From: Pirellulales bacterium
Lineage (GTDB): Bacteria; Planctomycetota; Planctomycetia; Pirellulales; PALSA-1355
Assembly (NCBI GenBank): GCA_963733035.1
Contig: CAVTBU010000006.1
Coordinates: 928,001 to 992,000, forward strand
Reading direction: 5' to 3'
Length of the DNA stretch: 64,000 bases
In this document: positions 5,128-23,007 of the stretch, piece by piece
Layout of the letters: each line of letters opens with the position of its first letter
How positions within the stretch are numbered: the stretch's first letter is position 1
The notes under the pieces: generated by a model
What the model was told of the DNA's origin: nothing
Databases searched by the model: none
Seen by the model: only the letters and a program-made list of their open reading frames with translations
Program-made: the position numbers and the translations under genes

Positions 5128-8088
5128 CTAGAATTGTTTTGCCTTATGAAGCCAAACACGGTATTTGTGCTCGATCTGTGCGTCGTCTGCCTCGGACAAT
5201 CGATCGACCCTATCGGCAAGCCGCGTAGAGGCATCAAGGGCATCGGACGCTCGAAATGGAGAAGTGTTTCTCCATTTCGCGACCGCCCGTCGAAAGCAAA
5301 TGTACGCGGCTGTCGGTTCCTGCTTTCGCTCTAGCAGCTCACCAAGCCAATATGAAATCCACCCAAGGTTCATACAAACCGCTTGGCTTTCATACTCAAG
5401 CAGCCAAGCTGACTTCAAGAGGCAATGCAGAGCATCGTCGTCCTTGCTCATAAAAAACAAGGTTCGACCAATATTGCCATAAAAGTGACCGTGCCGAGAG
5501 GTGTCGATCAGCGACGGGTTGACCACATCATTTAAGTCGGCTCCATGAAGGAAGTACTTCAATGCGCGTTCGGTCTCGCCTGAATCACGCTGGGCGAGAG
5601 CCAAATCGTGTGCGCAGTCATGCCGGGTATCAATATTGCCGGACGATTTCAAGTCGACGCCGCGCTGGCCCCATTCCTTCGCGAGCTCCATCTCCTGCCT
5701 GCTCCAATAGAAGTAGGCTCGTAAACGACAGATGCATACGTATCGGGCTGTGGCGCCACCTGCAGTTTTCGAAAACTGAATTAGCTGCGCCTCTGCGTCG
5801 TCAAATCTGCCGAGTTGAGACAACACTTCTATAAGGCGTGCATACGTGTTCTCGAAGGTTGGCGATTCTATTGTCGCAGAATCATTCCAGTCACAGATTG
5901 CGAGAACTCCACATGCGACTCGGACAAAGTCCTCCGAAAAGCCGCTCGATAGGAGAGCCTCACTGGCTTCATCCAGCACGACGAGCCCTCGACGATAGTC
6001 CCTACTGTTGATTAGTAATTCTACTTTATCTGTCCATTTGTGAAGTGTGTCGAAAGTAGCTGTGCGCTGCAGACTCGGGCGAAGCTTTACTATGATGCGA
6101 TCTAGCCAGACCATGATTGCTGTGATATAGCGATCGCGTTCGTTATTCGAGAACCGCTGTCGAATAAACTCCCGCACCAATGGATGCAGCTCAATTGTGT
6201 CTGAGCCAGTATGCGGAGTTTTTACTACAACCAAATCGAGCGTCTTGAGGCGTCCGAGTGTACTGCGAAACTGGTTGCGAGAGAATTCGCAGTCTACGAC
6301 CTCCTGGATATGCTTTTCAGTTTCCGGCCGCACAAGTTCCGCCAAATACCGCAACAGTTTCTGTTGTTTCGGCACCAGCGTCCTCCATACTTCTTGTAGC
6401 ATCGCAGTCGGTAGGCCCTCCGCTTTGCCGTCTTTGATCCGAGCGATCAACACAGGAACTTTGACGCGCTTGGAAAGGATCTGATTTGCGATCAATCCAA
6501 TCCATAGAGGGTGGCCTTGCAGTAGCGCATGCAGCTCTTCCAGATCGCCATCGCTTACCGTGACTCCTCGCGCCCTTAGAAGTTCACGCGCTTCGGCGAG
6601 TGAGAGCCCTTTCAACTCGATTTGCAAAAATGTGGGCCTATCGTATCTAAGCTTCGGACGGCAGGTGAATATGCAGCGCGATGAGCCCGGTGTCTTAAGC
6701 GCACCCTGAATCAGATCGTGCATGCCCCTAGCCGCTTGAGAAGTGTTTATATCCACATATTGGTCGATATTGTCGAATACAAATAGCCCTCGCACTGATT
6801 GCGACAAATTCAAGAACAGTCGAACGACAGACTCGATGCGCTCACCACTCAGGTCAGAGGCCCTGCTTCGGCCACCAGTTAGTCGCTCGATGATACGCAC
6901 AAGATGTGTGTGAAGCGTATTATCCTGTTCTTTACAGTCGCGCCAGTCAACTATGTCGACTTGAGCAGTTGTAGCTTCAAGGTACTTAGCAACTAATGTC
7001 GATTTGCCCTGGCCACCGATCCCTGTTATCGCAATGACTTTGGCGTTTGGATCACTCAGGAGTATCAGCTCGTCAGTGCGGCCCACCCACGTTCCGGTCG
7101 GAGGAGGGGTGTCACAAGTGTCGTCAAATGGTTCGTCAATAGATTTCGGCGCCGGAACAATCGGTGAGCGATCAAGCGCCGCTACTACCGTCATTGGACC
7201 TAGTACCGTTGGTTCCGACGAGGCAACGATTTGACTGAGTTCGTCAATGACTTTGAGAAGTGGTTGTCCATAGTCTGCGAATGGAATGAGCTCAACGTTG
7301 AGTAGGCGAGCTTCACGCGCTACATCGAGGTGGTCCTTATGAATTAGGGCATAATGTGGCCCATTGGCTCCGGCAAAAACGTCGTGTACAGCCCTAAGGG
7401 TCATACCGAATTTAGGATCTGCGAAACCGAAGCCCACAAACAAAAGAGAATGGCTGGTCAAAAGAGAACGCAGAGAATGGAGGGCGGCACCATAGACGGC
7501 TTTCGTCGCGTCGGAAGGGTACAATTGATTGTAGCCATCTGGCGTCAAAATAAGCTTGGCGGAGTCGCTAATCATTCCATGCAGGTGCCAGACAACTGGC
7601 CGTGATAATCCGGACCTCATCATTGCCGCTTGTTCGGCCGGGGACTCGATGTTCCAAGCATGTAAGTCATCCTGCTGGTCGCTTGCCCAGGCGAGGACTC
7701 GATCGTAGTTGGTTGTAACTACTAGGTTGCTCCCGAGTGTCCAAAGTCGTCGAGCAAGGGCAAGGCTATCGTCCGCTGCGGCCGAACGCGGGTGGTCAAG
7801 TTGATCGCTCAGAAGCGTGTACCAGTGTGGCCCGAGCGCTTCTTTCGCGTGCCTTGCCGCCTGCAGGAAATCGGGCTTATCAATTGTTATTAGGCTGCGA
7901 ACGAGCGTCCCATAAATTGGTTTGTTTTCCTGATCTAGCCGTTGTGCGGCAAGCGTGAGCAATTCAATCCAACTAGGAAACAGGGGAGTGGCGGTATCTC
8001 GCTTCGTGACGGCTCTTGATACGCCCGCGCCAACGAAAGGCACGATCTTTCGAGATTGCAAGAGCTTTATCAGTGTAGCGGGATACAT
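5128..8088 (-). CDS. SIR2-like domain + STAND NTPase + winged helix + TPR-like region (Avs/NLR-like antiphage candidate)
   Basis: SIR2 motifs FVGAGVS, VTTNYD, HLHG, LFVGFGFADP; Walker A GIGGQGKST; Walker B LFVFDNID; LHPLVREF; helical C-terminus; lower GC. Confidence 0.85.
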   Translation of the reverse strand: MYPATLIKLLQSRKIVPFVGAGVSRAVTKRDTATPLFPSWIELLTLAAQRLDQENKPIYGTLVRSLITIDKPDFLQAARHAKEALGPHWYTLLSDQLDHPRSAAADDSLALARRLWTLGSNLVVTTNYDRVLAWASDQQDDLHAWNIESPAEQAAMMRSGLSRPVVWHLHGMISDSAKLILTPDGYNQLYPSDATKAVYGAALHSLRSLLTSHSLLFVGFGFADPKFGMTLRAVHDVFAGANGPHYALIHKDHLDVAREARLLNVELIPFADYGQPLLKVIDELSQIVASSEPTVLGPMTVVAALDRSPIVPAPKSIDEPFDDTCDTPPPTGTWVGRTDELILLSDPNAKVIAITGIGGQGKSTLVAKYLEATTAQVDIVDWRDCKEQDNTLHTHLVRIIERLTGGRSRASDLSGERIESVVRLFLNLSQSVRGLFVFDNIDQYVDINTSQAARGMHDLIQGALKTPGSSRCIFTCRPKLRYDRPTFLQIELKGLSLAEARELLRARGVTVSDGDLEELHALLQGHPLWIGLIANQILSKRVKVPVLIARIKDGKAEGLPTAMLQEVWRTLVPKQQKLLRYLAELVRPETEKHIQEVVDCEFSRNQFRSTLGRLKTLDLVVVKTPHTGSDTIELHPLVREFIRQRFSNNERDRYITAIMVWLDRIIVKLRPSLQRTATFDTLHKWTDKVELLINSRDYRRGLVVLDEASEALLSSGFSEDFVRVACGVLAICDWNDSATIESPTFENTYARLIEVLSQLGRFDDAEAQLIQFSKTAGGATARYVCICRLRAYFYWSRQEMELAKEWGQRGVDLKSSGNIDTRHDCAHDLALAQRDSGETERALKYFLHGADLNDVVNPSLIDTSRHGHFYGNIGRTLFFMSKDDDALHCLLKSAWLLEYESQAVCMNLGWISYWLGELLERKQEPTAAYICFRRAVAKWRNTSPFRASDALDASTRLADRVDRLSEADDAQIEHKYRVWLHKAKQF

Positions 8089-8793: not shown

Positions 8794-9868
8794 ATGCCTA
8801 CGACCATTTACCGTCCTGCATCGCAACCGCGCGGCGTGCGCCGCGTAACTCCCTCGGTGGTCGATCCGGCCACCGCCGAGCCGTTTACGCTCGAGCAAGA
8901 GCTCAAGCCGTTTGGGGCCTGGGTGGGAGATCCGATTTGGGTGCCCCCCAAGGACGTGAGCAAAGACCTGGCCCAGACCATGCTGCACGAGACGCGGCCG
9001 TTTGCCGCGCCGGAGAAGCGCTGGCAGGCGGTCGTCAAGAAACATCGCGGCGAGTTCACCCAGGTGCGCGAGCTCGATCTGTTTCAGGCATCGATTCGAC
9101 TGCCGAAAGGCAGGTTCTTTGTCACCGTGACCGAGCAAAAGAACTTCGACAAGATTACCGATCCGATACCCGACTGCGTGCAAACCCGGCTGGACGAGTT
9201 TTTGAGCGGGCCGGGCCAGGAGCGGGGCGTGAAGGTGTATTACCTCAAGCCGCTGTGCGTGGAGATGGGGGACGAGCTGATTTTGACCTCGCGCGAGGAC
9301 CTGACCGCCGCGATCACCAAGATCCAGGACGAAGTGTTTGCCGAGTATCGCCGGCGAGCCCCCTGGCACCGGACGCTGCAAGCCGTGGCGGGGACGGCGA
9401 ACCTGGCTTTGACGCTTCCTCGCGCGGTGATGCGGATTGCGATCGATCGCAAACAGCGAGCCCTCGACGCGATGCAGGCGCGGCTCGAATTCGAACGCCG
9501 CAAGCTGGCCTTGCGCAGCGCCCACGCCTATTGCAAGCATCGCACATCGGGCTGCACGTTCGACGAGATGCTGGAGCTGACCAACCCGCTCAAGCGCACC
9601 GACGTGATCGATCAATACTGCACCGAGCAGGAGCTTTCGCGGGCGCAGTGCGCAGTTGCTGCATATCGCGGCCGGAACGCTGCCGTGGTTCGTCGGGATG
9701 TCGATTACGTTCGGGGGCTATATATCGACGCTGGCGGCAATTTGTCTGTCGCCGCCCGTGCTGGTTTGCGACCCGGCCTTCGTCGCCGAAATGCCAGGCG
9801 CGCGGGGCATGCTGCTGAAGATCGGCCACTTCGACGAAGTGGGTGGCGTGACGCACGTCGAGATTTAA
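8794..9868 (+). CDS. Hypothetical protein, frameshifted near 9650
   Basis: MPTTIYRP.. after GGAG; coding-like frame switches to 9656..9868 (LLHIAAGTLPW..CDPAFVAEMP..IGHFDEV). Confidence 0.7.
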
Positions 9869-10020
9869 CAGCCAGTTGAAAAATGCCGTCGTGGCATTTT
9901 TCAACCTCGCCAAGTGCGAAGCAAAGCTCCGCACGGCTCGCAAAATAACGACTTACGTCGCTATTTTGGCATCGCATCCATGCGATGACGCAGCCCGCCG
10001 AATTCTTCAACGGCCTGCTG
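9866..10020. mobile_element. MITE-like element (about 155 bp), copy 1
   Basis: Imperfect terminal inverted repeats (taacagccagttgaa / ttcaacggcctgctg); high similarity to 22850-23007. Confidence 0.8.
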
Positions 10021-12884: not shown

Positions 12885-13613
12885 TCACGCCTCAACCGGG
12901 AGGTCGGCGTTGTGGTAGACGTCTTGCACGTCGTCGCAGTCGTTCAGCATGGTGATGAACTTCTGGAACATCGGGAGGTCTTCCTGGCTGACGGCTTTGG
13001 TGGTTTGCGGGAGGAAGGTGATTTCCTGGACCTCGAGCTCCACGGTCGGAAACGCTTCGAGCAGGGCGGTTTTGGCTTTGTAGAACTCGGCCGGGGGGGC
13101 GAAGACGGTGAGCTGGCCGTTCTTGTGCTCGATCTCCTCGATGTCGACGTCGGCATCGAGCAGCGCTTCGAGCACCTGCTCCTCGTTGTCGCCCTTGAAC
13201 GACAGGACCGCCACCTGGTCGAACATGTGGGCGACCGAACCGGTGGCCCCCAGCTTGGAGCCGGTCTTGGTGAAGCAGGTGCGGACGTCGGTGATGGTGC
13301 GCTGGGCGTTGTCGGTCAGGCAATCGACGATGACCAGCGAGCCGCCGGGACCAAAACCCTCGTAGCGGGCCGGCACGTAGTCCGCGCCGCCGGCCCCTTT
13401 GGCTTTTTCGATTGCCTTTTCGATGACATGGGCCGGCACCTGCTCGCTCTTGGCCTTGTCGATGAGGGCCTTGAGCACGGGATTGGCCTCGGGGTCGGGC
13501 ACGCCGCTTTTGGCGGCCACGTACAGCTTGGTGCCGTACTTGGAATAGAGCTTCGATTTTTGAGCGGCCGTCTTGAAGATCGCGTGTTTGCGATTCTCGA
13601 AACTTCGTCCCAT
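12885..13613 (-). CDS. yebC: YebC/PmpR family protein
   Basis: [32 protein letters not shown]. Confidence 0.95.
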
Positions 13614-13789
13614 GGCAGTCGATTCTTGGTCTGGAAAGCTGGTGGCGTGAAGCCCTGCAAGGTAGCACGGCGGGGGCGATTTTTCCAGGCGGGGGTGGGA
13701 GGGGGTGGTGTCCCAACAGTGCGTTGCTGGCCGGTGGGAACCCGAAAAGCCGCCCCTCGGGTTGGGAGGGGTGAGTCATGAATAGGGAG

Positions 13790-14635
13790 TCAGGGAAACT
13801 CAGGCGCGAAACTCTCAACAATATTGCGAACGTGTGCGGCAATCTTTCCAAGTGTCGAGATGACTGGGAGTCGTTCTACTGCGCTGCACCCATGTCCGAA
13901 TTGCACCTCCGGCAGCACGTGAATTTGCACCTGCACGTCCTCTGGAGAAGCGGCGTCAATCTCGGCGACCTGAGTGCCATTATCAAGGGGGCGACCGCTG
14001 AAAAGTTTGGTGGTAGGCGCAGACATGACCCGAAATCGTCTGCCGCCGATTACATGGGTTCCTACTGGGCCCTTCAAGATGGCAGTATTTGCACGGACAG
14101 CAATGGCAAAGAGGACGAGGAGTCTGTGCTTGTCGGTGTTGTTGAGCGAATGAAGAAGCCACAGCAGGTTTTGCCGGTTTCCGTTTCCGCGCTTATATGG
14201 CTGCAATCTCTCAATAGGTGCTACAAATCGACCAAGCGGCTTGATCCTCGCGGTGTTTCTGTCAAATCTGTTTTTTCGTTTTGTACTGTGAGGGCCACGA
14301 AGAAAGATCGGGAACATGACTTGACCACAAATACCTTCGATGTCTCCGTGCCCAGCATTGAGGCAAGCCAGTTGGCAGGCTAAGCCGTCGAGGGTGGATC
14401 GCAGATTATGGGCGATCATCCCGGCGAGAATTGCGAAATCGGGCGGGATGGATGGAACATCTCGAAGTATAGCGTCGCACTTTCCTGTCTGGATATTCTG
14501 CTCGATGGAGACTCTGTGAGGGCGTTCCTTGAAGAATCGCTTGACGCCACTTTCGAGCGTTTGGATGTAGTCTTCTGTGACGCGAATTCTAGCCAAGGGG
14601 CCGTCCAATGAGGGTGTCACGGGTGTTGGTGTCAT
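13790..14635 (-). CDS. Hypothetical protein with HNLRSxLD and LNNxDKHR motifs (HEPN-like by inference)
   Basis: 281-aa ORF; lower GC; motifs AHNLRSTLD, FPI, LQPY, LHSLNNTDKHR; downstream hairpin aacccga..tcgggtt near 13740-13762. Confidence 0.7.
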   Translation of the reverse strand: MTPTPVTPSLDGPLARIRVTEDYIQTLESGVKRFFKERPHRVSIEQNIQTGKCDAILRDVPSIPPDFAILAGMIAHNLRSTLDGLACQLACLNAGHGDIEGICGQVMFPIFLRGPHSTKRKNRFDRNTARIKPLGRFVAPIERLQPYKRGNGNRQNLLWLLHSLNNTDKHRLLVLFAIAVRANTAILKGPVGTHVIGGRRFRVMSAPTTKLFSGRPLDNGTQVAEIDAASPEDVQVQIHVLPEVQFGHGCSAVERLPVISTLGKIAAHVRNIVESFAPEFP

Positions 14636-14706
14636 TTACTTCGCCCCGCGCACGCAGTTGGCACAGGAGTTTCGGGTCTCACCTGATGGGAGCTCGACGA
14701 CAGCAG

Positions 14707-15246
14707 CTATATGGACGGGGTTAGCTTCGCAATAGCCTTCCCAACGTCAATGTCCCATTTCGGTCGCTCGTTGAGGATGAGATCATGAACCACGCGGATC
14801 AGAAGACTAATGCCGTGGTTTATTCCACGCTTTACTCGCCATTTTTTCTTCAGATGGCCCTCGTAGCTATAGCGTGCATCAACAAACAGGTCCTCCGCTC
14901 GTTTAAGGATCGTTTTAATATCAAGCCTATAGCCCAGGCGCTGCGTCACGCGGTACAAGTCGTCATTAAGGACCTTCTCAGCGAGCATTCCTTTAATCTG
15001 CTTCTTGTCAGCCTTATCCATGCCCTTCCAGGAGAGTTGTATTTGGTGTCCGTACGCCGATCCCTTTCGCCCTCGAAGCTCGTGCAGGCACTTAAAGTGA
15101 AGCTCCAAGGCAAAGGCCTCTAGTGAGTATGCAAGTGACTTATAGCCGTTTCTGCCAAGTAGCGCAGCGGTCTTCCAGCTAAATGTGGCGTCAACAAAGA
15201 CGTCGAATGGTTTTGGTTGCTTCTTTTTAGCCTTTTTCTTTGCCAT
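14707..15246 (-). CDS. HEPN-like hypothetical protein
   Basis: AFALELHFKCL..GHQI..ARYSYE pattern typical of HEPN folds; lower GC; start MAKKKAKK after GAGG. Confidence 0.65.
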   Translation of the reverse strand: MAKKKAKKKQPKPFDVFVDATFSWKTAALLGRNGYKSLAYSLEAFALELHFKCLHELRGRKGSAYGHQIQLSWKGMDKADKKQIKGMLAEKVLNDDLYRVTQRLGYRLDIKTILKRAEDLFVDARYSYEGHLKKKWRVKRGINHGISLLIRVVHDLILNERPKWDIDVGKAIAKLTPSI

Positions 15247-15334
15247 TCGAACCGATCCTCTGATTGCTTTGTCAAAACCTTGCGCGGACCAAACCTGCAA
15301 GTGTCCCGACAGTTTGTCGTCGTGAAAAGCCGGG

Positions 15335-15577
15335 CTATGCCTGAGGTGGTTGACCGTCCAGCTCGGCCGGGCGTCGGTAGAGCGCCGCGAAGTCCGGCGT
15401 TCTGGTGCCCTGCCGATTCACCAACACGCTCATCCACTGAAACTGCTCACGCGCCTTTCGGCGTTTCAGGAAAGCCTCGCGGTTCCGTTTCAATTCCTCT
15501 GGCGTAGCGCGGCGACCAGCGCGCAGCTCGTGGGCTCGCACTAGGGACTCCCATGCTTTTCGATCACCCTCGTTCAT
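15335..15577 (-). CDS. Small basic hypothetical protein (80 aa), leaderless cassette 7
   Basis: ATG 8 nt after TAGAAT of repeat unit 1; MNEGDRKAWESLV.. Confidence 0.55.
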   Translation of the reverse strand: MNEGDRKAWESLVRAHELRAGRRATPEELKRNREAFLKRRKAREQFQWMSVLVNRQGTRTPDFAALYRRPAELDGQPPQA

Positions 15578-15624
15578 GCCAGCCGATTCTACCGCGGGTT
15601 GTGGCCTAGGAGCGAGTTGGTCGG
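15575..15624 (-). repeat. Cassette repeat unit 1 (hairpin deleted)
   Basis: Minus strand ccgaccaactcgctcctaggccacaacccgcggTAGAATcggctggcATG. Confidence 0.85.
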
Positions 15625-15633
15625 CTGGATAGG

Positions 15634-15945
15634 TCAACGCCACCAAACATTCAAGACCCAAAGCGAAAGGCCGTTCAAAATAATCGCGAAGAATATCACG
15701 GCCAGTGACTGCTGGCGTTTAAGCCGAATGCCAGCTGCGATAAAGGGAACTTGGACGAGGATGAATACTGCCCCTCCCCAGAGACCAACCCCCAGCGGCC
15801 GCCTGGTCAGATTTGCCGCGACCAAGTACCACATGAGTCCTATGCAGGCTGCAAGCACGACACTGCCCAGCAATAGGTTCCTTGGCGAGAGCGACCACGG
15901 TGTCTCATCGCCTGGGGCCGGTGACCGATATGGATTGTCGCTCAT
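15634..15945 (-). CDS. Small membrane protein (about 3 TM) with N-terminal NPYRSP motif, cassette 6
   Basis: MSDNPYRSP..; hydrophobic stretches; ATG 6 nt after TAGAAT. Confidence 0.8.
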   Translation of the reverse strand: MSDNPYRSPAPGDETPWSLSPRNLLLGSVVLAACIGLMWYLVAANLTRRPLGVGLWGGAVFILVQVPFIAAGIRLKRQQSLAVIFFAIILNGLSLWVLNVWWR

Positions 15946-15971
15946 GCCCCCATTCTACTGCGTGCCCTAGG
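15943..15971 (-). repeat. Cassette repeat unit 2 (promoter part only)
   Basis: Minus strand cctagggcacgcagTAGAATgggggcATG; its CCTAGG supplies the upstream stop codon. Confidence 0.8.
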
Positions 15972-16188
15972 ACTGTGGTGGTCGTGTGAATTGATCCGCG
16001 TTGAGGCGAGCCCAAATACCAAAGCCCAAGACCGCACCCGCCACAAAGCAACTGCCCAATAAGAGCAAGCCGCCGAGAAACCGCAGCTCGAACGCTGCCC
16101 AGACAGCCGCGAGCATCGCGAGACCGATTGCAATTGCTCGGCGGGCCGCCCGCCTAACTCGATCTTCGCTCAAGTCGCTGGTTCTCAT
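15967..16188 (-). CDS. Small 2-TM membrane protein (73 aa), cassette 5
   Basis: MRTSDLSEDRVRR..; two hydrophobic segments; ATG 6 nt after TAGAAT. Confidence 0.75.
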   Translation of the reverse strand: MRTSDLSEDRVRRAARRAIAIGLAMLAAVWAAFELRFLGGLLLLGSCFVAGAVLGFGIWARLNADQFTRPPQS

Positions 16189-16265
16189 GCCCCCATTCTA
16201 CCGCGCATGAAAAAGCCCCGGCAGGGACGGGGCGGTTGTGGGTATCCTAGGAGTGAGTTGGTCGG
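16186..16265 (-). repeat. Cassette repeat unit 3 (full length: conserved head, terminator-like hairpin, -10 box, ATG)
   Basis: Minus strand ccgaccaactcactcctaggatacccacaaccgccccgtccctgccggggctttttcatgcgcggTAGAATgggggcATG. Confidence 0.92.
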
Positions 16266-16280
16266 GGGGCGGGCGCCGTC

Positions 16281-16400
16281 TCACGGTCGTCGGCCGCGAG
16301 TGGAGACGGCAACTAGGAGCACGATCCCGATAACCGCTGCCACGAGTAGGGCTATCGCGCCTCCGCCGATATTGCCCGATGCTGATCCAAATTCGTACAT
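16281..16400 (-). CDS. 39-aa single-TM micro-protein MYEFGSASGNIGGGAIALLVAAVIGIVLLVAVSTRGRRP, cassette 4 (absent from the ORF track)
   Basis: Fills the space between repeat units 4 and 3; ATG 6 nt after TAGAAT; TM helix followed by basic residues. Confidence 0.75.
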   Translation of the reverse strand: MYEFGSASGNIGGGAIALLVAAVIGIVLLVAVSTRGRRP

Positions 16401-16441
16401 GCCCCCATTCTACCGCGCATGAAAAAGCCCCGGCACGGGGC
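16398..16441 (-). repeat. Cassette repeat unit 4 (hairpin + promoter)
   Basis: Minus strand gccccgtgccggggctttttcatgcgcggTAGAATgggggcATG. Confidence 0.9.
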
Positions 16442-16455
16442 CGGTGGACAGTGGC

Positions 16456-16758
16456 TTAAGAGGATGGTGGTCGGGGGCGGGAATGGGGAAAGTCGGCCTG
16501 CGACCGCAATCGACTGGCAAGGCGGATGAACCCCCATGCTCCTCCGCCGAAGATTGCCGACAAAAGCAGGCCGATAAAGAGGTGCTGGATACCGCTGAGA
16601 ATCGACCAGCGAATCGCAGCGACGATAAAAATGGCACTGGCCAATCCGAATGGGATCGCGACCAGGTAAAGCAGCAAGGCAATTGCCCACCTCCACGCGG
16701 GTACGGGCTGCCGTTCAACCGTGCTCGGTGGGCGGTATGGGTTTTCGGGGTCACTCAT
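16456..16758 (-). CDS. Small 2-TM membrane protein with NPYRPP motif, cassette 3
   Basis: MSDPENPYRPP..; hydrophobic segments; ATG 6 nt after TAGAAT. Confidence 0.8.
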   Translation of the reverse strand: MSDPENPYRPPSTVERQPVPAWRWAIALLLYLVAIPFGLASAIFIVAAIRWSILSGIQHLFIGLLLSAIFGGGAWGFIRLASRLRSQADFPHSRPRPPSS

Positions 16759-16836
16759 GCTGCCATTCTACCGCGCATGAAAACGCCCCGTTAGCGACGG
16801 GGCAGTTATGGGTGTCCTAAGGAATGAGTTGGTCGG
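16756..16836 (-). repeat. Cassette repeat unit 5 (full length)
   Basis: Minus strand ccgaccaactcattccttaggacacccataactgccccgtcgctaacggggcgttttcatgcgcggTAGAATggcagcATG. Confidence 0.92.
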
Positions 16837-16841
16837 ACTCG

Positions 16842-17180
16842 TCAATAGTCGGCGACCCAATTCTGATAGGTTCCAAGGCCAGTTCCCGCACTGCGAATTA
16901 GCTTACAGGAACGTGGGGCATCATGGCGGTGGACCGCGACGTAATAGACCACCGAGCCTTCGTATCCGCATTCAATCCCGTGGGCCTCTAGCAATTCCCT
17001 CATTGCCTTTGCCGTACCGGGATCGCCGACCGCGGCGATATCCACCCACTCCATGGCAGCTGAGTATCTCAACCACCCCCCGATGCAAATGGCTGAGATC
17101 GTGACGACCACGAACAGCGCCGATAGCGACCAGCGGTACCGGAAGCGCTTCGGGGTGGGAGTGGGGTCTGCTTCGTTCAC
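16842..17180 (-). CDS. Membrane-anchored protein with DUF2007-like domain, cassette 2 (coupled to cassette 1)
   Basis: GTG overlaps the upstream TGA (GTGA); RFRYRWSLSALFVVVT anchor; A.AMRELLEAHGIEC..V.V..D pattern. Confidence 0.7.
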   Translation of the reverse strand: MNEADPTPTPKRFRYRWSLSALFVVVTISAICIGGWLRYSAAMEWVDIAAVGDPGTAKAMRELLEAHGIECGYEGSVVYYVAVHRHDAPRSCKLIRSAGTGLGTYQNWVADY

Positions 17181-17461
17181 TTATCTGTCCTCTGGCGAGT
17201 TCCAACAAACCAAGCAAAGATGGCGATTACAAGTCCGCTTCTCCAGATGACGCCGATAATCGCGCCGCTGGCGGCTGTCCATCTCTTGCGTGCAATCTCG
17301 GCTTCAAATCCAACGTAGCCAAACCAGCAGTTGAGCGCAAGGACAACAAGGACCAGGGCAAAGACTCCCAATCCAAAGCGAGGCGAGCGCGATTTCTCGG
17401 CCAGCCTCCGGCACATTAGGCCCGCGGCTACGAACGGGAGCATGACTAGTATTTCGGTCAT
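17177..17461 (-). CDS. Small membrane protein (about 3 TM), cassette 1
   Basis: MTEILVMLPF..; hydrophobic; ATG 6 nt after TAGAAT. Confidence 0.75.
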   Translation of the reverse strand: MTEILVMLPFVAAGLMCRRLAEKSRSPRFGLGVFALVLVVLALNCWFGYVGFEAEIARKRWTAASGAIIGVIWRSGLVIAIFAWFVGTRQRTDK

Positions 17462-17508
17462 GCCCCCATTCTACCGCGCATGAAAAAGCCCCGGCAGAGG
17501 ACACGGGC
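17459..17508 (-). repeat. Cassette repeat unit 6
   Basis: Minus strand gcccgtgtcctctgccggggctttttcatgcgcggTAGAATgggggcATG. Confidence 0.9.
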
Positions 17509-17632
17509 TCGCCGGACTGACCCGCGCGGATTCTCGCGTACCGCCCAACACATCGTGGTCGCGCGGGGCGGGGCCCGTGCGCGGAGCTCGCGGCGGACGA
17601 TTCGCTCGCGTTCCGGAAAAAAATCGGCGAAT

Positions 17633-17669
17633 ATATATTGACGAACATCAATATAGATGATAATCTATA
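17633..17669 (+). promoter_or_regulatory. Sigma70-type leaderless promoter of the ArsR gene with overlapping operator palindromes
   Basis: TTGACG (17638) -17 nt- TAATCT (17661), ATG 6 nt later; inverted repeats TATATTGA-n6-TCAATATA and TATAGAT-n4-ATCTATA. Confidence 0.75.
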
Positions 17670-17672
17670 TAC

Positions 17673-18014
17673 ATGCTTCAACTGGACGATGCTTTTGCCG
17701 CGCTGGCCGATCCGACTCGTCGGGGGATTGTGCTGCATCTGGCCCGCGGGGAGGCGACGGTTTCGGAGCTGGTCGATCAGTTTGATTTGACGCAGCCGAC
17801 GATTTCGTCGCACTTGAAGGTGCTCGAATCGGCGGGGCTGATTTCGCGGGGGCGAGTGGCCCAGACGCGGCCTTGCAAGCTGGTGCCCGAGCGGTTGAAG
17901 ACGGTGACCGACTGGCTGGAGCAGGTGCAGAAGATTTGGGAAGGCAATTACAAGCGGCTCGACGCCTTGCTGCTGGAACTCAAGCGCGCACAGAAAAAGG
18001 AACGAAAGAAATGA
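17673..18014 (+). CDS. ArsR/SmtB family transcriptional regulator
   Basis: FAALADPTRR..SHLKVLE.AGLI.R.R.AQ.RPC. Confidence 0.93.
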   Translation: MLQLDDAFAALADPTRRGIVLHLARGEATVSELVDQFDLTQPTISSHLKVLESAGLISRGRVAQTRPCKLVPERLKTVTDWLEQVQKIWEGNYKRLDALLLELKRAQKKERKK

Positions 18015-18499
18015 AGCCCGCGGAAGTGACCACCCCGAGCGACACCGAAGTGCTGGTTCGCCGCAGCTTCGACGCGGCGGCCGAACTCGTGTGGCGAACG
18101 TACACCGAACCGGACTTGCTGCGGCGGTGGATGCTGGGGCCGCCGGGCTGGACGATGCCGGTGTGCGAAATGGACGTGCGCGTGGGGGGCAAGTATCGCT
18201 GGCGGTGGCGCAGCGACGAAGACGGCCAGGAGTTTGGTTTTTACGGCGAGTTTCAGGAGGTCGCTTTGCACCAGCGGCTGACGCAGACGCAATCGTTCGA
18301 CCCGGGCGACATCGGCGGCTCGATGGGCGAGGGAGCAACCGTGGTCACGGCCACATTTGAAGAGCGCGACGGGGTGACCCTGGTAAGCACGTCGATCCGG
18401 TACGCCTCGAAAGCCGACCGCGACGCGGCGCTTGCCACCGGCATGACCGAGGGCATGGAAATGAGCTACCAGCAGCTCGACGCGGTTCTGGCGAGCTAG
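18011..18499 (+). CDS. SRPBCC (AHA1-like START) domain protein
   Basis: RSFDA..LVW..T.PDLLRRW..CEMDVRVGG.YR; ATGA overlap with the ArsR gene. Confidence 0.9.
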   Translation: MKPAEVTTPSDTEVLVRRSFDAAAELVWRTYTEPDLLRRWMLGPPGWTMPVCEMDVRVGGKYRWRWRSDEDGQEFGFYGEFQEVALHQRLTQTQSFDPGDIGGSMGEGATVVTATFEERDGVTLVSTSIRYASKADRDAALATGMTEGMEMSYQQLDAVLAS

Positions 18500-18502
18500 G
18501 AA

Positions 18503-19256
18503 CTATTTGCCGAGTTCGGCCAGCGCGTTGTCGAGCGATCGGCTGGAGACTTGAATCACGCCCTCGAAGGGTTGATTCAAGTCGACGATCAAAAAGATCG
18601 CGCTGGCCACCGACAGCGAGCACATCAGCAGCACCACGACGACGGTCACATTCCGCGCCCAGAAGGCGCTCAGGCTGGCGAACAAGACGAAGAACCAGAA
18701 CAACAGCACGATCAAGAACGCCATCGGCAGCGAATCGTCGTTGGGCTGCGCCAATTGCCAGCGGGCCCGGGCCAGGGCGCTGGTTACTTCGAGCGCGTGG
18801 GTCTGCGAGCCGCGATGGCGCTCGTCGGCCGGCGCGAGTTTTTCGATCGCATCGAGCAGCGCGCCGCCTTGCGCGGTGATGTCGGCGTCTGCCATTCCAG
18901 ACTCGCCGCTCGTATCGCGGAAACGCTCGACCATCACGGTGACCATCTCGCGGAGTCGCGCGGGCCGGTTTCGTCTCGGGGCCGTAGTGCGCGAGCGTGC
19001 GGTCGAGCAACACGATGTTGGTTGCCAGCTCTTGCAGTCCGGTGCGCTCGGTGTCGAACGACGACTTGGCTCCGCCGATCAGCAGCCCAAGCACGAGCGC
19101 GGCCATCGTGGCAATCAGCCCGGTGCCAAGTTCAATGCCGTCCTTGGAGTCTCGGTGCAGGTGCGCGGCGGGAACGAGGCGGCCCAGGACCAGGCCGAGG
19201 AGCACGCCCCCGAAACAGAACGCGAGCACCGTCGCGGCGATGTGGATGGAATTCAT
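18503..19256 (-). CDS. DUF4239/bestrophin-like membrane protein; frameshift near 18955
   Basis: GLIATMAALVLGLL..AKSSFD..LDRTLAHYGPET in the first frame; DLNQPFEG.I.VS in the second frame. Confidence 0.75.
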
Positions 19257-19516
19257 GAACCGCCGCCAGTTTCCAGATGATGGTTCGAAGCGACAAGGTC
19301 ACCTAGCTGATTGGTCTTGAATATAGCGACGCGCCCGTTTGCAAAATAGCAGGCCGCAATCGGCAAGCCGATTTGCAAAGGCATGCCGACCGCCGCGGAG
19401 AGGGGCCGCGTCCTCGTCATCGTGAGTCCTCCTCGACCGCCTGGCGTTCTGCTAGACTTGGTCGCCGCCTGAATCAAGCGTTTGGGGAGCCGGCCGGCTG
19501 GTCGGGAACGAATACC

Positions 19517-22849: not shown

Positions 22850-23007
22850 CTAGCAGTTTTTTGAAAGATGCCGTCGTGGCATTTTTCAACCTCGCGAAGT
22901 GCGGAGCCAAGCTCCGCACCGCCCGCGAAATATCGACTTACGTCGGCTATTTCGTCATCGCATCCATGCGATGACGCCGCCCGTTGAATGCTTCAACCGG
23001 CCGCTAG
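22850..23007. mobile_element. MITE-like element, copy 2, immediately upstream of the katG RBS
   Basis: CTAG at both ends; imperfect TIRs; body nearly identical to 9866-10020. Confidence 0.82.

Follow-up and report, generated by a model that had tools for sequence, protein, structure and literature searches.

Between about 13.7 and 17.5 kb of a 64-kb window of DNA from a Pirellulales bacterium, the minus strand carries a row of small open reading frames (ORFs) separated by copies of a short repeated unit. Throughout, the window means the whole 64-kb stretch that was analysed, G000 the genome it comes from (assembly of 6.6 Mb, 92% complete, with contigs C5, C8 and C10 mentioned below), other G codes the genomes of its bacterial family (33 including G000, thus 32 others, in 15 genera) and L codes individual loci. 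A preliminary description had proposed that the units terminate one leaderless expression cassette and launch the next, and that the row is a candidate for an undescribed cassette-capture or diversification system. Here, we find the cassette anatomy largely upheld and relate the junctions to the terminal inverted repeats (TIRs) of an IS1-family transposon. From its head onwards, the row comprises the following features, with lengths in nucleotides (nt) or amino acids (aa).

17455..17510, minus strand: head unit, with a weak half-hairpin, a T-tract, CATGCGCGG, TAGAAT, GGGGGC and the ATG of ORF A
17177..17461, minus strand: ORF A, 94 aa, a conserved small membrane protein with two hydrophobic segments
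16842..17180, minus strand: ORF B, 112 aa, starting at GTG and bearing an N-terminal anchor of the KRFRYRWSL..VVVT type
16756..16841, minus strand: full unit B/C, with a TIR-like motif (16808-16841), a hairpin (16784-16804), a T-tract, TAGAAT and the ATG of ORF C
16456..16758, minus strand: ORF C, 100 aa, three hydrophobic segments; its C-terminal ..RPRPPSS and stop lie within a TIR-like motif
16398..16478, minus strand: unit C/D, with a diverged TIR-like motif, a hairpin (16426-16442), a predicted promoter and the ATG of ORF D
16281..16400, minus strand: ORF D, 39 aa, one hydrophobic segment
16186..16270, minus strand: full unit D/E, the reference unit, with a TIR-like motif (16238-16270), a hairpin (16215-16233), a T-tract, TAGAAT and the ATG of ORF E
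15967..16188, minus strand: ORF E, 73 aa, two hydrophobic segments; a TIR-like motif supplies both its stop and its C-terminal RPPQS
15943..15990, minus strand: truncated unit E/F, in which the TIR-like motif abuts TAGAAT directly, with neither hairpin nor T-tract
15634..15945, minus strand: ORF F, 103 aa, three hydrophobic segments
15575..15629, minus strand: truncated unit F/G, with a TIR-like motif and CGCGG-TAGAAT; about 28 nt, corresponding to the hairpin and T-tract, are cleanly lost
15335..15577, minus strand: ORF G, 80 aa, a soluble, charged, conserved small protein with no hydrophobic segment
15322..15358, minus strand: decayed TIR-like motif overlapping the end of ORF G (..GQPPQA, stop), with a vestige of the T-tract part behind it
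14707-15246, minus strand: ORF H, 179 aa from its ATG, lower in G+C
13790-14635, minus strand: ORF I, 281 aa, lower in G+C
13704..13738, minus strand: well-kept IS1-family TIR in the orientation of the array motifs, with a TAnnnT hexamer 39 nt past its tip

All six minus-strand units reported previously (15575, 15943, 16186, 16398, 16756 and 17459) were recovered by motif, repeat and profile searches, and a reading of the minus strand across 14800-18200 confirmed that each of them terminates on the ATG of a small ORF. The core GCGGTAGAATGGGGGCATG (19 nt), allowing up to three mismatches, occurs at 15943, 16186, 16398, 16756 and 17459, i.e., five times as against 0.01 expected from shuffles, while the weaker sixth copy at 15575 is a member of a 14-nt repeat family (six copies) and a profile match. 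A 5′ motif, CCGACCAACTCACTCCTAGG, occurs at 15605, 16246 and 16817 (three observed, 0.00 expected). Grouped by a repeat finder, the junctions yield a 66-nt segment in four copies, a 25-nt segment in five and the 14-nt segment in six. Identity to the reference copy of the 66-nt family is 86% for one copy and 73% for two; compared at full length with the reference unit, the units at 16756 and 16398 are 86% and 80% identical, and the core is identical across 33 nt in three units. Each complete unit consists of three parts: a motif of about 25 nt homologous to a TIR, a G+C-rich hairpin with a T-tract (present in three units), and a TAGAAT box ahead of the ATG. Without gaps, the distance from the tip of the TIR-like motif to TAGAAT is 37 nt in unit B/C, 34 in C/D, 37 in D/E, 0 in E/F and 5 nt in F/G. 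The head unit matches the profile at 17493-17455 (E = 4.7e-14), and no TIR-like motif was found upstream of it (17455..17510). The seventh, decayed copy 3′ of ORF G (15322-15358) had been overlooked in the preliminary description.

The payloads of these junctions differ from one another. Hydrophobic segments of 19 aa, one to three per protein, are present in six of the seven array ORFs, ORF G being the one without, and ORF B is coupled to ORF A by a GTGA overlap in which its GTG start sits in the stop of ORF A; on both points the earlier account stands. Its statement that the ORFs are mutually unrelated agrees with local DNA alignments, in which 20 of the 21 pairs did not score above codon shuffles; the C-D pair reached z = 3.06, and ORFs C and F have an N-terminal MSD..NPYR.P motif in common. 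ORF-versus-ORF blastp gave no convincing pair, the best E value (2e-4, in a seven-sequence database) being confined to hydrophobic stretches. For all nine ORFs A-I, the codon score was highest in the annotated frame out of six. The values themselves (0.00-0.19, compared with a genome-typical 0.31 ± 0.15) and the third-position G+C were low, which fits real but atypical, possibly imported, genes.

Relatives of the ORFs turned up in varied settings. ORF A has relatives in 7 of the 32 other family genomes (best E = 7.8e-15, 39% identity), in varied contexts, and the relative in G047 likewise has TAGAAT 6 nt ahead of its ATG. Relatives of ORF G occur in another genus, within a comparable array (L107, E = 2.9e-12), and in a same-genus genome (L009). 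Relatives of ORFs H and I, whose G+C is 0.50-0.55, adjoin an IS1-family transposase elsewhere (H in L237, E = 4.4e-15; I in L253, E = 2.2e-8). Among 5.8 billion clustered proteins, ORF B matched only itself, its N-terminal anchor motif alone matching many loci; ORF C gave only marginal matches, in 2 of the 32 family genomes, and ORF E likewise only marginal ones. For ORF F, no small relative was found among 1.84 billion representative proteins, the only matches being two long multi-stretch proteins. On these comparisons, A and G can be classed as conserved genes, H and I as typical transposon passenger genes and the remaining ORFs as orphans. Searches of ORFs A-I against Pfam, PHROGs and PADLOC, and of H and I against NCBIfam, returned no family. 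With no PADLOC match, an identity as defence systems was dropped for ORFs A-I. Nor was a kinship with phage morons, suggested previously, borne out: none of the nine ORFs matches a PHROG family, Pfam detected no phage structural or integration gene among 15 neighbouring ORFs, and the window contains no tRNA gene.

The motif at the 3′ side of the small ORFs recurs about a dozen times in G000 as CCGACCACCTCACTGTTAGGACACTACC, and a degenerate form of the pattern is found in 29 of the 33 family genomes, often as inverted pairs, with a reversed control nearly absent. Complete elements fetched via such inverted pairs encode a transposase of about 340 aa together with other genes. In a set of 79 loci picked solely by transposase and independently of TIRs, inverted TIR pairs at a spacing of 1.8-7.0 kb were found in 43, each of them bordered by a perfect 8-bp target duplication; these 43 were used for the flank analyses below. 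The transposase of the intact C5 element of G000 scores 27.5 bits against PF03400, DDE_Tnp_IS1 (cut-off 24.1), and its zinc domain (IS1/IS1595, NF050000) 32.3 bits (cut-off 28), while the NCBIfam IS1 equivalog NF033558 gives 78.7 bits, under its cut-off of 100; by these scores it is a distant IS1-family member. Ends of the form GGnnnTG are given as an IS1-family feature in a published account (PMC6807381), and the tips of our elements, GGTAGTG and GGTGGTG, match this form. The intact elements elsewhere thus combine a DDE transposase and zinc domain with GGnnnTG TIRs and short duplications. Relatives of this transposon family are found in Planctomycetota, mostly in Pirellulales-type genomes assembled from metagenomes.

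Clear homology, extending through CCGACCA.C..CA.T..TAGGACAC, emerged when eight well-kept ends were aligned with the six array motifs (alignment A1). The final 4-5 nt of the array copies are degenerate, which marks these copies as remnants rather than active ends. Judged by this alignment, the 5′ third of the unit is a decayed IS1-family TIR, a part of its make-up that the preliminary description had missed. It follows that the row would be linked to mobile DNA through a DDE transposase encoded at other places of the genome rather than through a local recombinase. Scanned with a profile built from intact ends, the window yielded a single good end, at 13704-13733 (minus strand, E = 2.2e-4). At least three TIR subtypes are represented among the six junction motifs, which argues against a single origin; one of these subtypes is most like the right end of the C8 element.

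Several other arrangements of these ends were seen. The same-genus genome G001 has about 45 TIR matches, many in pairs 144-146 bp apart. Those inspected (L102-L104) belong to miniature elements, about 165 bp long, that have these TIRs and are flanked by 8-bp duplications. In G017:C1047 (L112), a 465-bp element holds a single 92-aa membrane ORF between its TIRs. The transposase of the C8 element (C8:75249-76283) is split into ORFs of 139 and 204 aa, and C5:1182074-1183359 contains what appears, judged by eye from translations, to be an inserted two-ORF IS3-type element. We also considered the promoter part of the unit as a decayed left TIR (GGTAGAAT..ATGAG compared with GGTAGTGT..GTGAG). About 12 of 20 positions agree by eye, and we treat this as speculation only; conservation runs left through CATGCGC and the T-tract, which a left-TIR origin does not explain.

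The remaining two thirds of the unit read as an intrinsic terminator followed by a leaderless promoter, as had been proposed, and this reading is well supported at the level of sequence. A consensus scan of the minus strand called terminator-like hairpins with T-runs at 16784-16804, 16426-16442 and 16215-16233, plus a weak one at 17488-17502 in the head unit; at the three junctions, a G+C-rich stem-loop directly precedes a coding-strand T-run. The earlier count of two full-length copies needs amending for the hairpin, which occurs in three units rather than two. Across 111 distinct copies of the hairpin-promoter block, 49 have a stem of at least 7 bp abutting the T-tract (50 of 555 in shuffles), and 81 stems of at least 5 bp represent 61 different sequences, some variants showing paired changes. 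Together, the enrichment, variety and paired changes suggest that the hairpin is maintained as a structure. No common structure came out of folding 68 hairpin regions together, as their loops differ in length and their 5′ arms misalign. In G000, hairpins followed by TTTTT(C/T)(A/G)TGCGC also recur without the promoter part (e.g., C5:119122, C8:322612 and C10:49360), and this may be a preferred post-terminator sequence in the organism.

In five units, TAGAAT precedes the ATG by 6 nt; in the sixth, the distance is 8 nt. Throughout the 6.6-Mb assembly, TAGAAT ahead of an ATG that opens at least 50 codons is found 23 times at 6 nt and nine times at 7 nt, compared with zero to seven cases at each other distance within 0-20 nt; control hexamers are flat. 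The relaxed form TAnAAT behaves similarly (39 and 27 cases at 6 and 7 nt, 6-19 at other distances), and some of the TAGAAT-N6/7-ATG cases head large genes of 555-715 codons. Such a genome-wide signal supports leaderless transcription. A survey of bacterial genomes names TANNNT about 12 nt before the start codon as a mark of leaderless genes (PMC3160421), and the first T of TAGAAT, 12-13 nt ahead of the start codon, occupies the position given there; a Shine-Dalgarno sequence is absent, as expected of a leaderless promoter consisting of a -10 box alone. Between 13500 and 18100, no sigma-70-like promoter was called on either strand and no -35 match lies at proper spacing, the -35 region being taken up by the 3′ arm of the hairpin. 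TTTTCA, tried as a -35 box, stands 7 nt from TAGAAT in the common form and 18 nt away in an insertion variant, a variable spacing that excludes a fixed -35 element. A literature search for leaderless transcription in Planctomycetes returned work on another organism only.

In G000, the block made up of hairpin, T-tract, CATGCGCGG and TAGAAT is present at five further places, and the genome has seven exact-core copies in total. In four of these places, a small ORF with hydrophobic stretches opens a few nt past the block; in the remaining one, the ATG follows 68 nt downstream. Allowing up to three mismatches, a 25-nt core occurs in 6 of the 33 family genomes including G000 (5 of the 32 others) and in 4 of the 15 genera, with none in a reversed control. 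In these relatives, an ATG lies 6-7 nt past the box in 11 of 13 copies examined, opening mutually different ORFs of 14-133 aa. An exact 20-mer of the unit core further retrieved 100 stretches of metagenome contigs with 95 distinct copies, all in distinct contexts, of which 61 have an ATG 6-8 nt past the box; the 48 downstream ORFs of at least 30 aa form 44 clusters (blastp, E < 1e-3), and 33 contain hydrophobic segments. The block is thus no peculiarity of the locus, and the notion of constant junctions with differing payloads extends from the row to two G000 transposons and to metagenomes. The three same-genus genomes share about 75% DNA identity, and their matches to the locus are scattered fragments (70-78%) on different contigs, with no synteny. 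A soil DNA run compared with the window gave short identical pieces and one 271-nt contig about 85% alike over 16025-16141.

In three metagenome arrays (L113, L153 and L177), a two-gene pattern recurs: behind the block come a variable small ORF and, next to it, a gene of a repeated family. Members of this family have a DNA-conserved N-terminus, MRFRKLRIAWSV.., and a C-terminus of the form ..RFSLRTLL..VVLGLIV..; the N-terminal anchor of ORF B is related to it.

What ties block and transposon together is found in the two intact elements of G000, at C8:74032-77760 (3729 bp) and C5:1179095-1184417 (5323 bp), both with perfect 8-bp duplications. Inside the TIR at the right end of each are a hairpin, a T-tract, TAGAAT and a leaderless small membrane ORF, of 44 aa in one and 92 aa in the other; the two ORFs are unrelated, and their 3′ ends run into the TIR. 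As far as sequence can tell, the array-type cassette of promoter, small ORF and TIR is therefore the terminal cargo of live-looking G000 transposons, with a different ORF in each. In another genus, L107 contains a small-ORF row with same-orientation TIRs in between, including the ORF G relative with a translationally coupled B-like gene after it.

The flanks of the 43 intact elements further suggest that this transposon family picks its targets by promoter, with the tip 38-40 nt upstream of a -10 box. At one end of 17 of the 43 elements, an outward sigma-70-like promoter was called whose -10 box starts 37-42 nt from the tip; the reverse orientation gave none, and displaced windows gave 6 of about 167 at scattered positions. 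With no threshold applied, 27 of 84 flanks have TAnnnT at offsets 38-40 and 30 of 84 have TTG at offsets 14-17; the profile of displaced flanks is flat. The TAnnnT offset is 38 on the left flank of both G000 elements and 39 at the end at 13704 in the window. Taken with this peak, the array spacings of 37, 37 and 34 nt make the order of TIR, about 37 nt and -10 box look like the footprint of the family landing before a promoter. Targeting of terminator hairpins was also considered and rejected, with two crude hairpin-plus-T matches in 86 flanks of the 43 elements. In the literature on promoter-targeted bacterial insertion sequences, we found no description of such a fixed-distance preference, which, from a limited search, is weak evidence of novelty.

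The explanation we favour, to which we give an about even chance, is that the stretch from 13.7 to 17.5 kb is a row of independently expressed small-gene cassettes built from IS1-family transposon ends. At each junction, a decayed TIR would close the upstream cassette, often supplying the upstream ORF with its stop and last residues; at three junctions, an intrinsic terminator of hairpin and T-tract would then halt read-through; and a -10-only promoter would start transcription at or next to the A of the ATG, giving a leaderless mRNA with no Shine-Dalgarno sequence. Between E, F and G, where terminators are absent, read-through would also be possible. The row may have grown as transposons or end fragments landed ahead of the promoter modules of existing cassettes, a geometry that would yield the junction order of TIR, about 37 nt and TAGAAT. 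Afterwards, transposase parts would have been lost, and recombination between junctions of 50-80 nt would have reshaped the row. In a bolder extension, which we think rather unlikely, a transposon that homes to a fixed position ahead of promoters would itself carry cassettes driven by promoters of this kind, and cassettes would so stack end behind end, with the retained TIRs serving as alternative ends that let the transposase move varied numbers of cassettes. The row would then be a transposase-based counterpart of integron cassette arrays in soil Planctomycetota.

Some observations weigh against this explanation, and part of them fit another reading, namely that a single ancient insertion ahead of a promoter created the 80-nt block (TIR remnant, hairpin and promoter), which later spread before small ORFs, already present or newly arisen, by recombination or gene conversion with no further part played by the transposon. 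The promoter and terminator activities on which the cassette scheme depends are predictions. A profile search of the 64-kb window revealed neither a transposase nor an opposite-facing TIR. Only 2 of the 43 intact elements picked by transposase have the block near an end, which would make the cassette a cargo of some members rather than a fixed part of the transposon, and the array spacings (37 and 34 nt) are at the edge of the 38-40 nt peak or slightly beyond it. Beside 102 metagenome block copies, a canonical TIR was found in no case upstream and in one downstream, so that, apart from this exception, the block sits before 44 unrelated ORF clusters in its 95 metagenome contexts with no such TIR adjoining. 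Two array units have TIR tips with common derived changes and the same AACC/AACT spacer, which block duplication or gene conversion fits as well as independent insertions do; the 33-nt core identity in three units, and the agreement with published putative mobile promoters (PMC3575422), point in the same direction. A block spreading by itself sits less well with the several TIR subtypes at the junctions, one of them closer to the C8 right end than to other array motifs, or with the cassette at an end of both intact G000 transposons; moreover, no known mechanism moves the block alone, and neither target duplications nor inverted repeats bound it. We regard such independent spread as possible, if somewhat unlikely.

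Readings that dispense with the transposon fare worse. Diverged tandem duplicates of one small membrane-protein gene, with junctions kept alike by selection or concerted evolution, could account for the MSD..NPYR.P N-terminus in ORFs C and F and for the ..RPPQS-like tails on several ORFs, and small hydrophobic proteins quickly lose detectable similarity. The common tails are, however, encoded by the TIR motif itself, the ORFs vary in length between 39 and 112 aa, A and G each have relatives of their own in other genomes and contexts, and junctions up to 100% identical flank ORFs without likeness. The lack of residual DNA similarity in 20 of 21 pairs speaks against duplication, which the preliminary description had itself named as the outcome that would undo its reading; we consider it very unlikely. 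A row of type I toxin-antitoxin-like loci, in which the hydrophobic peptides act as toxins at the membrane and the flanks serve to encode or control antisense RNAs, would match a tandem series of small hydrophobic products with repeated regulatory DNA. In known tandem type I loci the copies are homologous, whereas the ORFs here share no homology among themselves, and those of 94-112 aa with two to three membrane segments are long for such toxins. An Rfam search of 13000-19500 with E values up to 1 gave no match, and no sigma-70-like promoter was called on either strand of 13500-18100. Even though leaderless transcripts are reportedly common among toxin-antitoxin genes in some bacteria (PMC8485053), we deem this identity highly improbable.

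An integron-like array, or one of another site-specific recombinase, in the form of an attC-like cluster lacking its integrase, would explain small, mostly orphan, same-direction ORFs with a repeated element of about 80 nt between them. Searching the whole assembly with the integron integrase model TIGR02249 gave 17 matches, the best at 81.1 bits against a cut-off of 265 and none above it, and sub-threshold matches of this kind occur likewise in all 14 control genomes. An attC site is a long imperfect palindrome that folds as single-stranded DNA and has GTTRRRY / RYYYAAC core sites. In the units (four folded in the sense strand, two of them also in the opposite strand), only a local hairpin of 5-7 bp and no long imperfect palindrome was seen; fold z-scores were -2.65, -0.45, -0.38 and 0.57 in sense and -2.53 and 0.89 on the opposite strand, i.e., two of six better than shuffles, and no attC core sites were found on reading the units. 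With no IntI above cut-off in the genome and no attC-like fold, integrase-like cassette capture is not supported, and we put the chance of this alternative close to nil.

Should the transposon-end explanation be right, transposon ends would deliver ready-made cassettes (terminator, leaderless promoter, ORF) ahead of existing promoters and offer bacteria a route to collect and independently express many small, fast-turning-over membrane proteins. A promoter-proximal transposon family would also be of interest for the study of targeting and as a natural promoter marker in a phylum whose promoters are poorly mapped, and the compact conserved module of terminator and leaderless promoter is a candidate expression part for Planctomycetota.

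Around the row, direct multi-hairpin repeats of about 155 nt at 9866-10019 and 22850-23007 bracket a 13-kb region that contains it; this repeat has more than 40 copies in the same-genus G001 and bears no transposon TIR. At 5128-8088 on the minus strand lies a 986-aa protein with SIR2-like, NACHT/NB-ARC-type ATPase and TPR parts and PADLOC matches to LmuA- and ThsA-type SIR2, which is likely an anti-phage defence gene. The region 17673-18499 (plus strand), upstream of the array head and divergent from it, encodes an ArsR-family regulator and an AHSA1/SRPBCC protein, with no evident link to the array. Two overlapping minus-strand ORFs in different frames, 18345-19256 and 18503-18946, match the first and second half of the Bestrophin-like PF14023 and may represent a frameshifted gene or an assembly error.

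Compared with described systems, the row has its closest likeness in two of them. Putative mobile promoters are similar non-coding upstream sequences found before unrelated genes, within a genome and across genera, with unknown means of movement and, in some cases, links to insertion sequences (PMC3575422). The block here likewise recurs upstream of unrelated genes in G000 and in other genera. Such promoters are defined by at least 80% identity over at least 50 nt ahead of unlike coding parts, and the full array units match the reference unit at 86% and 80%. In contrast to those promoters, it abuts the start codon, has its own upstream terminator and, in G000, is joined to a transposon end and set in tandem rows. 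The screen that defined them (Matus-Garcia, Nijveen and van Passel, 2012) covered positions -150 to -50 (PMC3575422), whereas the block spans -1 to about -80; being mostly outside the screened region, most of it would have been missed. Correia, ERIC and REPIN sequences, which are promoter-carrying miniature elements (PMC3575422), are also short dispersed repeats that place promoters or terminators by genes, and the same-genus genome has a 165-bp miniature element with the same TIRs; the array units differ from them in having neither inverted repeats nor target duplications of their own and in their low copy number (seven core copies in G000). With integron arrays and attC clusters, the row shares its single direction, its small, mostly orphan ORFs and a repeat linked to every ORF at its 3′ end. 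Integron cassettes generally lack a promoter of their own, whereas here each cassette would have one, the repeat derives from a DDE transposon, and integrase and attC fold are missing. Finally, IS1-family elements with passenger genes match in DDE_Tnp_IS1 and zinc domain, GGnnnTG ends, the 8-bp duplication and lengths of 1.8-7.0 kb that imply cargo; the differences are a distant transposase, below the equivalog cut-off, the promoter preference at 38-40 nt, and an array that itself lacks a transposase. On this comparison, the undescribed capture system of the preliminary description is not borne out, and the row is, on present sequence evidence, tied to an IS1-family transposon and akin both to putative mobile promoters and to IS1-family elements with passenger genes.

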